Position numbers and translations under genes: made by a program
Notes under the pieces: generated by a model
Database searches by the model: none
What the model was told of the DNA's origin: nothing
The model's input: the letters and a program-made list of their open reading frames with translations, nothing else
Shown: piece by piece, positions 45,544-60,658 of the stretch
Layout of the letters: each line of letters opens with the position of its first letter
Numbering within the stretch: position 1 is the stretch's first letter
NCBI GenBank assembly: GCA_000002435.2
Contig: CM018793.1
Reading direction: 5' to 3' (one strand)
Source of the DNA: Giardia intestinalis
Lineage: Eukaryota
Length of the DNA stretch: 64,000 bases

Positions 45544-47691
45544 GTGCGACCAGGCCAGCGGGCTCCCCCCTGGGGCAGCCCTCGGAGTGGGAGTCTCAGA
45601 GAGGAGGCCGCCGGGGCACCCCCACCCGCTGCGCGCAATCCGGTCCACACCACAGCCTCTCTACTGATACCCCTGTTCGTGGTGAGCGCGCTTGCAGTAA
45701 CCTGCCAGACCGGCAAGTGCGAGACGGTCGGATCAGCCGAGATTTGCACCCAGTGCAGGGCCGGGGGCGTCCCGGTCGACGGCTTCTGCTGGCCCCCCGG
45801 CTCCCCCCAGGCCGCGGCAGCCGGGTGCACCGAGGAAGACGGGGCTACCCTCGACAAGACGGCAACCACCTGCGGGAAGTGCGGCGACGGGTACTTCCTC
45901 TTCATGGGAGGGTGCTACAAGGTAGGACAAGATCCTGGCAGTGAGATATGCACAACAGCCAGTGATGGAGTGTGTACTACTTGTAAGACAGATAACGGCC
46001 TGTTCAAGAACCCGGCTACAGCACCGAAGCCTGGTAGTGAGTGCATCCTGTGCTCTGATATCAAGGGAGCAGATGGATATACGGGAGTAGAGAACTGCGC
46101 ACAGTGTACCAAGTCAGACAGTAACAAGGGGGCTGCCACGTGTACAGAATGCCAAGATGGATATTATAAAGATGCTAAAGGCGCATGTGTACAATGCCAG
46201 GGGAACTGCGCCACTTGTGAGACATCGGCGACCCAGTGTACCTCTTGTAAAGCGGGCTTCTATCTGAAGGACGGCAATAGCTGTGTGGCAGAAGGAGAAT
46301 GCACAAACACCGTTTATCCTGACCCAGAGTCGGGGAAGTGCAAGGCATGTAGTACAATAACTGATTGCACAGAATGCTCCTTCGACAAGGCCACGGGGAA
46401 GCCTCAGTGCACAGCCTGCGGTAGTCAGAAGACCCCCAGGACGACCCTTGATGGGACCTCGACCTGCGTCGATAAAACGCTTGACGGGTGCAAGGGCGCT
46501 GACGGGGCCTTATTTATGAAGGACGATACCACATGCGCCCTTTGCGGCGATGCGTCCCCTGGCGCTGGCGCAAACGATAAGGGGATTGCCGGGTGTAAGA
46601 CATGTACTAAGCAGCAAAGTCAGAAACCAGAATGCACAAGTTGTTTGGATGGATACTTCTTTGAACAGTCATCAAAGACTTGTTCGGCTTGTGCCTCCAA
46701 CTGTGCCACCTGCACGTCAGCTGATGTGTCAACTTGTACTGAGTGCCTTCCTGGGTACTTCCTAAAAACCGAGGGTGAAACGAAGTGTGCTGCATGCGAC
46801 AGTACACCAGATGGTGGCCGCGAAGGGTGCAGTCTATGTTCTAGCAACGGTGGATTTAAGTGCACTGAATGTAAGCCTAACTATAAGAAGCAGTCCAATG
46901 GAGGAGCAGGGGATGACTATACGTGTACAAAGGTGTGTGAAGACCCCACTGCTTGTGGGGGGACAGCTGGCTCTTGTGATGCCATAGTGATCGGTGCTGA
47001 TGGAAAGGAGCTTCACTATTGCTCATACTGTGGGGAGAGTACTAAGGTACCAATTGATGGCATCTGTGCTACTGATAAGAAAGGTAATACTTGTAACAGT
47101 CATACATGTACACAGTGTGCTCAAGGGTACTTCTTATACATGAATGGCTGTTACAAGGTTGGTCAAGAACCAGGTAGTCATATGTGCAAGACAGCAGGTA
47201 ATACTGGGATATGCACAGAAGCGGCCAACAATAGATACTTCGTAGTCCCAGAGGCAACCAATGCTCAGCAGTCTGTACTAGCATGTGGTAACCCATTAGG
47301 CACACTAATAGGTACTCAAGACAATGCTAAGGCATACGTGGGGGTCGAGGGCTGCTCCCAGTGTACAGCCCCAGTAGCTCTGACTGAGGCTGGTATGGCT
47401 GCCGCTACATGCACCTCCTGTGACAGTGATAAGAAGCCCAACAAGGATGGCACCGGGTGTGTGCTGTGCTCTGTGGGTGATTGCAAGAGCTGTGTGGTGG
47501 ATGATGTGTGTGGGGAGTGTGTTGATGGGTACAGTCTAGACAGCAGTGGGACCTCCTGTGTGTCTATGAGTACCAACAGGAGCGGGCTCTCCACGGGGGC
47601 CATCGCGGGGATCTCCGTCGCTGTGGTCGTCGTCGTGGGGGGCCTCGTGGGCTTCCTCTGCTGGTGGTTCATATGTAGAGGGAAGGCATGA
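45544..47691 (+). CDS. Variant-specific surface protein (VSP), copy A, the most complete copy. It has no in-frame ATG before the signal-peptide-like segment, so it may be a pseudogene or a junction copy
   Basis: CxxC-rich ectodomain with GGCY motifs. It ends ...NRSGLSTGAIAGISVAVVVVVGGLVGFLCWWFICRGKA*. The signal-like segment TASLLIPLFVVSALAVTC (about 45649-45702) sits in an ORF that opens with GTG at 45544 inside the GC-rich block. The first in-frame ATG comes only at FLFMGGCYK. AGTGAAT lies 8 nt after the stop. Confidence 0.6.
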   Translation: MRPGQRAPPWGSPRSGSLREEAAGAPPPAARNPVHTTASLLIPLFVVSALAVTCQTGKCETVGSAEICTQCRAGGVPVDGFCWPPGSPQAAAAGCTEEDGATLDKTATTCGKCGDGYFLFMGGCYKVGQDPGSEICTTASDGVCTTCKTDNGLFKNPATAPKPGSECILCSDIKGADGYTGVENCAQCTKSDSNKGAATCTECQDGYYKDAKGACVQCQGNCATCETSATQCTSCKAGFYLKDGNSCVAEGECTNTVYPDPESGKCKACSTITDCTECSFDKATGKPQCTACGSQKTPRTTLDGTSTCVDKTLDGCKGADGALFMKDDTTCALCGDASPGAGANDKGIAGCKTCTKQQSQKPECTSCLDGYFFEQSSKTCSACASNCATCTSADVSTCTECLPGYFLKTEGETKCAACDSTPDGGREGCSLCSSNGGFKCTECKPNYKKQSNGGAGDDYTCTKVCEDPTACGGTAGSCDAIVIGADGKELHYCSYCGESTKVPIDGICATDKKGNTCNSHTCTQCAQGYFLYMNGCYKVGQEPGSHMCKTAGNTGICTEAANNRYFVVPEATNAQQSVLACGNPLGTLIGTQDNAKAYVGVEGCSQCTAPVALTEAGMAAATCTSCDSDKKPNKDGTGCVLCSVGDCKSCVVDDVCGECVDGYSLDSSGTSCVSMSTNRSGLSTGAIAGISVAVVVVVGGLVGFLCWWFICRGKA

Positions 47692-47698
47692 CTCAGGT

Positions 47699-47705
47699 AG
47701 TGAAT
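47699..47705 (+). promoter_or_regulatory. AGTGAAT polyadenylation-signal-like motif 8 nt after the VSP stop. It is repeated after every array unit that ends in CRGKA
   Basis: tga ctcaggt AGTGAAT gc. In D/G-type units the motif is preceded by a cttaggt variant. Confidence 0.5.
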
Positions 47706-58909: not shown

Positions 58910-58966
58910 CTCAGGTAGTGAATGCTATACAATGTGTGATAATGGGTGATAGTATGATAGTGGAGT

Positions 58967-60658
58967 GTGATATGCACAGCAGCCAGTAGTGGAGTGTGCA
59001 CTGAGTGTAATACAAATAGTCAGTACATATTCCAGAACCCTGCTACAGCACCAGAGAAGGGTAGCGAGTGCATCCTGTGCTGGGATACCAAGGGAGCAGA
59101 TGGATATACGGGAGTGGAGAACTGCGCCACATGTACAGCACCAAGCACCCCAACGGCTGCCACGTGTGATACCTGTCAAGATGGATACTATAAAGATGGT
59201 AACGGCGCATGTACCAAATGTCATACCGACTGCGAGACGTGTAATGGAGCTGATCAGAATGCGTGCACCTCTTGTAAGGATGGAAAGTATCTGAAAGGTG
59301 GAAATACGTGTTCATCTACATGTGAAGGAAACACTTACCCTGACCCTGTGACAAGGACATGCAAGGATTCTAGTATAGTAGATTGCACCACGTGTGAGTA
59401 CAACCCGGCAACTGGGGGCCCAAAGTGCACAGCCTGTAACGGTAAGATAGTCAAGGAAGAGGCCGACGGGACGACAACGTGCGTCGAGGCAAATGGGTGC
59501 GCTCGAGATGGCCAAGCAGGCACGCACTTTCTGAGTGACAACAACGATAAGTGCATTCTGTGTAGCGATACAACAACAGGAACAGGAGCAAGTAACCAAG
59601 GAAAGGACAACTGTAAGACATGTACTAAGGCTGGTTCAGGACAAGCACCGGAATGTTCAGAGTGTCTGGATGGATTCTTCTTTGAAAAGTCATCAAAGAC
59701 TTGTTCGGCTTGTCATCAGAACTGTGCTACGTGCTCTGAAGCTACGACAGAAAATAGGTGCGAGTCCTGCTATCCAGGATACTTCTTGGTTGTATCTGGT
59801 GCTGATAAAAAGTGTGTCCCATGCGATGATGCACAGAATCAAGGGATCGAGGGCTGTGCCGAGTGCACTGGTACTACAGGATCCCTCAAGTGCACAAAGT
59901 GCAAGCCTAACAGGAAGCTCGCTGGAAACGAGGGGGACCTCACATGCACAGAGAAGACCTGTGAAGATGATACTGCCTGCGGGGGGACATCTGGAGCCTG
60001 CGATGCCATAGTGATTGATGATCAGGGCAATGCAAAGCACTACTGTTCCTATTGTGGGGATAACAGTAAGGTACCAATTGATGGGAAGTGTGTTGATAGT
60101 GGTCAAAAGAATGGGAATACTTGTACCAGTCACATATGTACACAATGCACCAACAACTACTTCCTCTACATGGGAGGGTGTTATAAAGCAACAGAGGTGC
60201 CTGGTAGCTATATGTGCAAGACAGCAGATAATAAGGGGATATGCACAGAGGCGGCCAACAATAAGTACTTCATAGTCCCAGGGGCATCCAATCAGAATCA
60301 GTCTGTACTAGCATGTGGTAACCCCCTAGGCACACTAGTAGATACTAAGGCATACGTGGGGGTCGAGGGCTGCTCTCAGTGTACAGCCCCGACAGCTCTA
60401 ACAACAGCTGGCATGACCGCTGCTGTGTGTACCTCTTGTGGTGAGAGTAAGAAGCCCAACAAGGATGGCACTGGGTGTGTGCTGTGCTCTGTGGGTGATT
60501 GCAAGAGCTGTGTGATGGATAATATATGTGGGGAGTGCAACAGTGGCTTCAGCATAGACAATGGTAAGTGCGTGTCCTCTGGCAGTAATAGGAGCGGGCT
60601 CTCCACGGGGGCCATCGCGGGGATCTCCGTGGCTGGTCTCGTTGGGCTTCTGTGTTAG
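58967..60658 (+). pseudogene. VSP copy H, a divergent paralog truncated at both ends: no start codon or signal peptide, and the TM/CRGKA tail is destroyed (...ISVAGLVGLLC*)
   Basis: The 3' end reads ...gggatctccgtggctggtctcgttgggcttctgtgttag, against the array consensus ...gtcgctgtggtcgtcgtcgtggggggcctcgtgggcttcctctgctggtggttcatatgtagagggaaggcatga. There is a deletion within the TM segment and a premature stop. Confidence 0.6.

Follow-up and report, generated by a model that had tools for sequence, protein, structure and literature searches.

Linear arrays of VSP genes are known from the genome of Giardia intestinalis WB, where the members are separated by spacers of ~60 bp and the downstream ones lack an Inr, and it has been proposed that these arrays could serve as recombination cassettes (Adam 2010, BMC Genomics 11:424, PMC2996952). 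ψVSP arrays are also described in the 2020 WB reference (Xu, Jex & Svärd, Sci Data 7:38, PMC7000408), and both the WB arrays and the reservoir hypothesis appear in a 2022 preprint (Rodriguez-Walker et al., 10.1101/2022.03.07.483299). In G. muris, ψVSP arrays are non-transcribed and have been regarded as gene-conversion reservoirs (Xu 2020, Microb Genom 6:mgen000402, PMC7641422). Moreover, in natural populations VSPs are over-represented in gene-conversion tracts (PMC12669663).

In this work we analysed a stretch of 64,000 nt (the window) from chromosome 5 of the 2020 G. intestinalis WB reference, in which eight VSP-family ORFs lie head-to-tail on the plus strand between positions 45,454 and 60,658. 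This locus is probably one of the ψVSP linear arrays, a type already on record for WB, and it is compatible with a silent array of recombining cassettes. It shares with the known WB arrays the organism and genome, the head-to-tail order, spacers of ~60 bp, the lack of protein-coding annotation, downstream members that have no Inr or proper start and yet keep the CRGKA tail and the poly(A) signal, and the presence of near-identical pairs inside one array. However, the first member of a WB array is often an intact VSP with an Inr, whereas here copy A has lost its ATG and promoter at a GC-rich flank, and the last member, H, is 3'-truncated. The original prediction held that such an array is unexplained by current models. 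This part has to be dropped, since arrays and the reservoir hypothesis had already been published for the WB genome: both the phenomenon and the idea of a silent recombination reservoir are known in the literature. There is thus little new here as a discovery, and the locus is of interest as a clean worked example of recent unequal crossovers, conversion-like tracts, a coding-selection signature and a tract shared with an intact VSP.

The ψVSP arrays of G. muris are also tandem copies of VSPs devoid of a signal peptide. A role as silent reservoir was proposed for them, and there is evidence that they recombine, or undergo segmental conversion, with intact VSPs. They differ in being almost all telomere-adjacent and in having CRGK tails, whereas the WB array is chromosome-internal; furthermore, their untranscribed status was shown, while the silence of the WB array is deduced from its sequence. 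The comparison with VSG and msp2 donor cassettes is an analogy. Like the units described here, the silent VSG arrays of Trypanosoma brucei comprise mostly defective antigen genes, with a variable body set between conserved blocks, conserved 3' ends and a short repeat upstream of every unit (the 70-bp repeats in T. brucei), and segmental conversion could build mosaics from them. However, no dedicated expression site is known in Giardia, in which switching was reported to occur without DNA rearrangement (PMC2996952) and no array copying event has been observed, and the 10-nt spacer repeat is not known to have a role. The functional pseudogenes of Anaplasma marginale msp2 are likewise 5'- and 3'-truncated copies with a variable core and conserved ends shared with the expressed gene; unlike the present units, they are bacterial, dispersed rather than tandem, and proven donors into a single expression site.

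Organization of the array and its flanks

All eight copies belong to the VSP family, as they score 73-159 bits against Pfam PF03302 (gathering threshold 31.4; E-values 2e-20 to 2e-46), with a Cys content of 10.6-12.5% and 25-29 CXXC motifs per copy. Each unit of ~1.9 kb consists of a truncated VSP body, a TM segment with the CRGKA tail, an extended poly(A) signal and a short spacer, and the gap from a stop to the next open frame is 5-63 nt across the eight units (Table 1). The spacers are degenerate GTGATAGTGG repeats that run straight into the next truncated body. In the A/B spacer, for instance, the extended poly(A) signal occupies positions 47691-47707 (including the A of the stop codon), and is followed by a near-Inr CAATGTG at 47712-47718 and by a degenerate (GTGATAGTGG)n repeat at 47718-47762.

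Table 1. Features of the VSP array and its flanks, in window coordinates.
Feature	Position	Strand	Description
Left flank	44125-45453	+	GC-rich (~63% GC) ORF; hypothetical protein GL50803_00d114445, KAE8304725
Open frame A	45454-47691	+	Directly after stop of upstream GC-rich ORF
Copy A, near-full-length VSP pseudogene	45658-47691	+	From signal-peptide-like SLLIPLFVVSALA, no ATG; TM, CRGKA and stop intact
A/B spacer	47692-47754	+	Ends in in-frame TAG
Open frame B	47755-49488	+	
Copy B, 5'-truncated VSP cassette	47755-49488	+	Opens at WSEICT, ends in CRGKA
Block C+D, spacers included	49489-53253	+	First copy of 3,765-nt two-unit block; recurs 5,656 nt downstream
Open frame C	49550-51379	+	
Open frame D	51385-53253	+	
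Unit E, spacer and copy E	53254-55144	+	C-type body, A/B/D/G-type tail (FICRGKA)
Open frame E	53315-55144	+	
Block F+G	55145-58909	+	Second copy of C+D block
Open frame F	55206-57035	+	
Open frame G	57041-58909	+	
Unit H, spacer and copy H	58910-60675	+	WSVICT 5' truncation; decayed 3' end
Open frame H	58961-60658	+	
Right flank, hypothetical GL50803_00d60176	60713-61249	-	KAE8304726
Right flank, intact High Cysteine Membrane Protein group 3 gene	61277-63778	+	KAE8304727

The array lies in the interior of the chromosome, preceded by unrelated genes in the window's first ~40 kb and followed by the HCMP gene. A look-up in a protein collection gave exact matches to KAE8304725, KAE8304726 and KAE8304727, which bracket the array; as these accessions are consecutive, no protein-coding gene is annotated across it. 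Exact look-ups of the ATG-started forms of A to E and of G in the same collection gave none, and only the 162-aa tail of H is there, as XP_001703928.1, a gene model of 2007. The left-flank ORF is in the frame of copy A, with only its TAG stop between them; its product has no Pfam match and at least 4 paralogues in WB. On the other side, the VSP homology of H fades at ~60675, the beginning of the GC-rich right flank. No homology was found when the two GC-rich flanks were compared with each other and with the remaining window, and a mobile element or insertion, which such homology might have marked, was rejected. An rDNA or telomere context for these flanks was rejected as well, with Rfam giving only the snoRNA GlsR24 and a tRNA.

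The 5' and 3' ends of the units

As originally predicted, copies B to H begin mid-gene. Five of them (B, C, E, F and H) start with W-S-(E/V)-I-C-T immediately past an in-frame TAG, while D and G open 5 nt past the preceding stop and show VSP homology from GLLFMGGCYK onwards. The units start inside or just past the KCGDGYFLFMGGCYK..SEICT block that is conserved in full-length VSPs, and the missing part, which had been put at ~130 aa, is instead about 85-105 N-terminal residues, comprising the signal peptide and the conserved N-terminal head. Other WB arrays show this type of junction too, as the spacer-derived ...DSDS...LLFMGGCYK start is also found in the old WB gene models P0015, P0022, P0026 and P0030.

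The absence of an in-frame ATG followed by a signal peptide was confirmed for the eight plus-strand ORFs. No hydrophobic core follows an in-frame Met in any of them, the best 10-residue Kyte-Doolittle mean being 1.41, against at least 2.05 in each of the 17 intact VSPs used as reference; this is a crude hydropathy measure and not SignalP. In B, C, E, F and H there is no in-frame ATG before codon 131-403 (codon 164 in B). In D and G the early ATGs are found only at codons 9 and 13, within spacer-derived sequence, and those of D (51412 and 51424) come without a signal peptide. Copy A does have the signal-like segment claimed for it, SLLIPLFVVSALA at 45658, with a score of 2.65, and its open frame indeed contains no ATG before codon 150. 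Moreover, the VSP initiator motif YAATGTT (PyAatgTT) does not occur within positions 40,458-64,000. Each spacer has a near-Inr CAATGTG, which opens a frame of 5 codons only. The possibility that the 5' ends are supplied by splicing was also considered and rejected: the Giardia 3' splice motif CTRACACACAG was not found on the plus strand within or between units, and its count over the window equals the chance expectation.

At the other end, the conservation noted before stands for A to G, all of which keep the TM helix and terminate in ...CWWF(I/L)CRGKA. Behind each of them lies the extended VSP poly(A) signal ACTYAGRTAGTRAAYRY, which has exactly 7 matches in the window against 0.01 expected by chance, and is absent behind H. 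This signal was described in the 2022 preprint (10.1101/2022.03.07.483299) as ACUUAGRUAGURAAYRY, no more than a few nt away from the stop. The start-less copies had been called pristine, which is not true of H: it has an 18-nt deletion in the TM region, a TGG to TAG change and no CRGKA, and it ends in ...GLVGLLC.

Since the units lack the initiator element, a usable start codon and a signal peptide, they are presumably not expressed as surface antigens, and the silence of the array is deduced from these missing signals. It is very unlikely, in our judgement, that the units are nevertheless transcribed and functional as RNA or protein, either as proteins without signal peptide that D and G would start at their spacer ATGs, or as sense or antisense transcripts feeding the RNAi pathway implicated in VSP control. 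In favor of such expression, D and G each contain an ORF of 613 aa that begins with an ATG (at 51412 and 57068, respectively), the poly(A) signal is perfect in A to G, and every spacer carries the near-Inr. In addition, abundant antisense VSP transcripts have been reported, and tagged "VSPs" devoid of signal peptide were membrane-localised in the hands of another group, according to the same preprint (10.1101/2022.03.07.483299). However, the Inr itself is absent, the frame opened by the spacer CAATGTG is only 5 codons long, B, C, E, F and H lack an early in-frame ATG, surface display is not expected from products with no signal peptide, and the ψVSPs of G. muris are essentially untranscribed (PMC7641422). 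The earlier suggestion of signal-less expression from spacer ATGs is possible for D and G only, and the product would have no signal peptide.

Relations among the copies and with intact VSP genes

Eight ORFs are present, as had been stated, but they represent only five distinct sequences. C and F are 100% identical over 1,891 nt, and E differs from C at 11 nt: it joins a C-type body, in which there is 1 substitution, to a final 120 nt that belong to the A/B/D/G tail type. D and G also differ at 11 nt, all within a 70-nt patch (52905-52974), in which G agrees with A at 11/11 sites and D with C at 8/11. The last 649 nt of A (47043-47691) are 100% identical in G, the last 256 nt of B are identical to A, D and G, and an 87-nt segment of B (47763-47849) is identical to C (49558-49644). 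Identical tracts of 120-649 nt occur within copies that are otherwise 65-73% identical, and the identity profile is U-shaped, falling from 0.85 at the spacer and junction to 0.50-0.63 over the body and rising again to 0.86 at the tail.

Judging from these relations, the array expanded through very recent unequal crossovers. Unequal crossing-over, together with gene conversion of short tracts in the conserved ends, enlarges and edits it, and its unit order (B C D E F G H) follows from B C D H via two unequal exchanges. The first duplicated the C-D block, and in the second a crossover joined a C-type body to a D tail to give E, the product to be expected when a C-type unit and D cross over unequally. 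We did not find a description of this unit-level history or of the identical tracts for this particular array.

The long-read assembly may have over- or under-represented the copy number of the C-D, E and F-G blocks, although we consider this improbable. The full identity of C and F could come from assembly polishing, the 3.8-kb block is repeated with just 11 clustered differences, the 2007 assembly gave a different, chimeric model (P0082), and arrays are known to have broken the Sanger assembly (Adam 2010, PMC2996952). On the other hand, E is marked by a private substitution as well as a distinct tail, and the differences of D from G are confined to a defined patch, so the copies are distinguishable and not simple collapses, and the 5.7 kb repeat period fits within PacBio read length. 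Mis-assembly, one of the alternatives in the original prediction, is thus conceivable for the copy number of the C-G block, but does not explain why the 5' ends are missing, as they are at seven junctions here and again in other arrays.

Codons 96-493 of open frame A correspond to residues 39-436 of P0001 (KAE8304683; XP_001705078) with 1 mismatch in 398 aa; P0001 is an intact VSP that begins with MFQLIPLF... and is encoded on the same chromosome as the array. An intact VSP with a C or D body was also sought and rejected, the best intact matches being at most 62-63% identical. The C and D bodies have no more than 63% identity to any annotated protein, except for the old 2007-assembly model P0082, whose sequence is the same as that of C over 228 aa before it diverges.

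A putative silent store of ectodomain sequence

A silent cassette or pseudogene array fits everything tested, and the donor role itself is putative. The silent cassette reservoir suggested in the original prediction is compatible with the lack of start codon, signal peptide and Inr, with the conserved flanks around diverse bodies, with the long identical tracts and with the 398-aa tract shared by A and P0001; it is its novelty that does not stand. Over evolutionary time the array may trade sequence with expression-competent VSP genes, and through such exchange it would store alternative ectodomain sequence. It would then be an ectodomain store rather than a player in the routine switching of VSPs of the epigenetic or RNAi type. 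Against this role, no close intact relative exists for the bodies of C and D, which therefore give no sign of past use as donors.

The divergent copies carry the marks of coding sequence. Their dN/dS is 0.28-0.36 at a dS of 0.74-1.28, 67/69 Cys columns are invariant, and they have 0 in-frame stops as opposed to 17-73 in the other frames; in a simulation, only 2.6% of such ORFs stayed open after 5% unconstrained change. This is a protein-coding signature, which points to divergence under protein-level constraint.

It must be taken into account that the array could be evolutionary debris, a by-product without a role of the unequal crossing-over of a once-truncated VSP fragment. Its ORFs would owe their open state only to the youth of the duplicates or to repeated overwriting by functional VSP genes, and the array would be an acceptor and not a donor. 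Indeed, leftovers of vsp genes that had been discarded are an alternative listed by Adam 2010 (PMC2996952), and this reading agrees with the visible decay of H (deletion, W to stop, lost tail), the lost start of copy A, the near-identical recent duplicates C/E/F and D/G and the absence of the C and D bodies from intact genes. We regard it as rather unlikely, given that five bodies that are 27-35% divergent all retain open frames and the Cys scaffold with a dN/dS of ~0.3, and that B, C and H have the truncated junction in common. From this common junction it follows that the bodies either diverged after the truncation under constraint or were imported by conversion, and in both cases the array is recombinationally active and not inert.

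Beyond the silent store that we favor, the units could be actively maintained gene-conversion donors, with selection keeping their ORFs and Cys scaffold; during infection, VSP genes that bear an Inr would receive copies of their bodies. The poly(A) signal and degenerate GTGATAGTGG repeats of the spacer, the FMGGCYK/SEICT block and the TM/CRGKA block would then be sites of homology and initiation. We find this improbable. If true, it would mean a recombinational antigen diversification in G. intestinalis, similar to VSG mosaics, atop epigenetic or RNAi switching. The locus is convenient for testing whether Giardia builds new expressed VSPs from array cassettes.

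Eight VSP copies and their missing starts

The interval 45,454-60,658 is filled by eight plus-strand open frames (copies A-H, see table), all of which match PF03302 (VSP) above the Pfam threshold, and thus the predicted array of eight head-to-tail VSP copies at 45-61 kb is confirmed. Copies A-G close with a transmembrane (TM) helix and CRGKA, and behind each of them stands the extended VSP poly(A) signal; a scan of the 64 kb gave exactly seven hits of the pattern ACTYAGRTAGTRAAYRY, one per copy from A to G, against 0.01 expected. Copy H has an 18-nt deletion in the TM region and a TGG to TAG change, and lacks both CRGKA and the poly(A) signal, so that the description of the copies as otherwise pristine fails for H.

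A usable start is absent from all eight copies. In B, C, E, F and H an in-frame TAG directly precedes the opening W-S-(E/V)-I-C-T, and the first in-frame ATG lies at codon 131-403. The open frames of D and G begin 5 nt past the preceding stop, and their only early ATGs (51412 and 51424 in D, 57068 and 57080 in G) are in spacer-derived sequence. Copy A carries the signal-peptide-like SLLIPLFVVSALA at 45658, with no ATG ahead of codon 150 in its open frame. No hydrophobic core follows an in-frame Met in any copy (score at most 1.41, versus at least 2.05 in 17 intact VSPs), the VSP initiator motif PyAATGTT does not occur from 40,458 to the window end, and no Giardia 3' splice motif lies ahead of any array unit. 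The original observation that no copy has an in-frame ATG plus signal peptide is thus confirmed; its figure of some 130 missing N-terminal residues has to be lowered to about 85-105, according to alignment with full-length VSPs.

After each stop, a unit runs through the poly(A) signal, a near-initiator CAATGTG and GTGATAGTGG repeats into the VSP body. The repeat is present in 4-6 degenerate copies per spacer that continue into the body (TRF match at 47718-47762). The CAATGTG, a 6/7 match to the initiator CAATGTT, lies about 21 nt past the stop in every spacer (47712-47718 and equivalents) and opens a frame of only five codons (ATG TGT GAT AAT GGG TAA/TGA); it may be what is left of a VSP start or may have arisen by chance from the GTGATA-type repeat. 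When the copies were aligned with 17 full-length VSPs, homology restarted at ...GLLFMGGCYK in the D/G type and at WSEICT, 15-20 codons beyond, in the B/C/E/F/H type. Both points fall inside or just past the conserved block KCGDGYFLFMGGCYK..SEICT, the end of the relatively conserved N-terminal head of full-length VSPs. As intact VSPs read QWSEICT (P0038) or LWSEVCT (P0007) here, this alignment suggests that the TAG before TGG could have arisen from CAG or TTG by a single substitution. The spacer-derived ...DSDS...LLFMGGCYK also starts the 2007 gene models P0015, P0022, P0026 and P0030 in other arrays, and thus this junction type is genome-wide and not confined to the array at 45,454-60,658.

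Every copy also holds a pair of similar internal blocks, GYFLFMGGCYKVGQDPGSEICT and GYFLYMNGCYKVGQEPGSHMCKT, spaced by about 400 aa; in copy A they lie at codons ~146-170 and ~558-585 of the frame from 45454. The 5' truncation of the array units falls at the first block, and out-of-register recombination between the two is conceivable.

Constraint, exchange and the silent-cassette reading

The evidence says that the copies are not decaying. For copies A, B, C, D and H, dN/dS values lie at 0.28-0.36 with dS of 0.74-1.28, and 67 of the 69 Cys columns do not vary. The copies' own reading frames contain no stops and the other two frames 17-73; in simulation, only 2.6% of 609-codon frames stayed open after 5% unconstrained change. 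Taken together, these data argue that the divergence of the bodies arose under protein-level selection. Conversion may have brought in bodies from functional genes with the junctions retained, or open frames may be maintained within the array.

Only five sequences are distinct: C and F are identical across 1,891 nt, E shows 11 nt differences from C, and the 11 differences between D and G are confined to 52905-52974. The distinct copies share 65-73% identity overall, yet contain long perfect tracts. The final 649 nt of A and G are identical; perfect tracts link B to A, D and G (256 nt) and to C (87 nt); E has the C body but a final 120 nt of the A/B/D/G tail type. In the D/G patch, G equals A at 11/11 sites and D resembles C at 8/11. 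Averaged over B, C, D and H, identity reaches 0.85 across spacer plus junction and 0.86 across the tail, with 0.50-0.63 for the body. From the tract breakpoints we infer that B-C-D-H became B-C-D-E-F-G-H when its conserved tails twice underwent unequal exchange: the first event duplicated C-D, and in the second a crossover of the second C-type body with the D tail produced E, followed by F-G.

Residues 96-493 of the copy A open frame match residues 39-436 of P0001 (KAE8304683 / XP_001705078) with one mismatch. P0001 is an intact VSP of 748 aa (N-terminus MFQLIPLF); its gene is on the same chromosome, about 42 gene records upstream. The two differ in the signal-peptide region and the 3' third, and the 3' 649 nt of copy A are of the array type, so that copy A is chimeric, with an array tail joined to a body like that of an intact gene. 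No close intact relative of the C or D body was found (best identity 62-63%), with the sole exception of P0082 (XP_001703933.1, 2007 annotation), in which 228 aa are identical to copy C from its internal Met (49943-50626) and which diverges completely beyond; it is either a copy in the paralogous array or a Sanger-assembly chimera.

Linear arrays with ~60-bp spacers contain over half of the WB vsp genes, and all downstream members lack the initiator (Adam et al. 2010, PMC2996952). The published WB tally is 133 VSPs and 208 VSP pseudogenes; a 2022 preprint describes array pseudogenes without their 5' portion and an extended poly(A) signal common to VSPs and pseudogenes. In G. muris, pseudogene arrays are untranscribed, exchange sequence with intact VSPs and have been likened to VSG and Pneumocystis systems (PMC7641422), and a 2025 population study found VSPs enriched in gene-conversion tracts (PMC12669663). 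To read the array as silent cassettes is reasonable; as a novelty the proposal does not stand, since both the start-less array and the silent-cassette idea are already known for this genome. That the cassettes are actively used as donors into expressed VSPs, with recombination at the spacer repeats, seems quite improbable.

Flanking sequence and annotation

Coordinates of the array copies and flanking features
Feature	Position	Strand	Identification
Copy A	45454-47691	+	VSP
Copy B	47755-49488	+	VSP
Copy C	49550-51379	+	VSP
Copy D	51385-53253	+	VSP
Copy E	53315-55144	+	VSP
Copy F	55206-57035	+	VSP
Copy G	57041-58909	+	VSP
Copy H	58961-60658	+	VSP
tRNA gene	5502-5583	+	Rfam RF00005, 61 bits; between two long ORFs, housekeeping part
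snoRNA GlsR24, H/ACA	41640-41786	-	Rfam RF02487, 166.6 bits; inside GC-rich left flank
Overlapping ORF	43677-44579	-	
Left-flank ORF, 442 aa	44125-45453	+	KAE8304725 (hypothetical GL50803_00d114445), exact protein match
Right-flank ORF	60713-61249	-	KAE8304726 (hypothetical 00d60176), exact protein match
Right-flank ORF	61277-63778		KAE8304727 (High Cysteine Membrane Protein group 3), exact protein match

The window belongs to the chromosome-scale 2020 assembly of Giardia intestinalis WB (ATCC 50803). The three annotated flanking proteins are on one 4,018,654-bp record; their accessions are consecutive and bracket the whole array, which leaves 45,454-60,712 without a protein-coding gene in the reference annotation. 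A second, paralogous trio (114445 / 60176 / HCMP group 3, KAE8304796-98) lies on the same chromosome, adjoined by an 81-aa H-like VSP tail (P0145), and thus the whole locus, array end included, looks segmentally duplicated.

GC-rich blocks (55-68% GC) flank the array at 40000-45660 and 60660-64000, versus 44-51% in the first 40 kb, and in them long ORFs overlap on both strands, as at the left flank (see table). The 442-aa left-flank ORF has no Pfam match and at least four near-identical WB paralogues (GL50803_00114445, 00113952, 00111911), with further copies in isolate DH; it may have been called spuriously in this GC-rich DNA. A single TAG (within 45451-45456) divides it from the copy A open frame, and the frame that they share is probably a coincidence.

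GC skew on the coding strand is strongly positive in the array (0.11-0.21 per 2 kb at 46000-60000), probably reflecting VSP codon and amino-acid composition (Gly, Cys, Thr-rich); elsewhere, most 2-kb windows have ~0 +/- 0.08, and 38001-40000 has -0.148.
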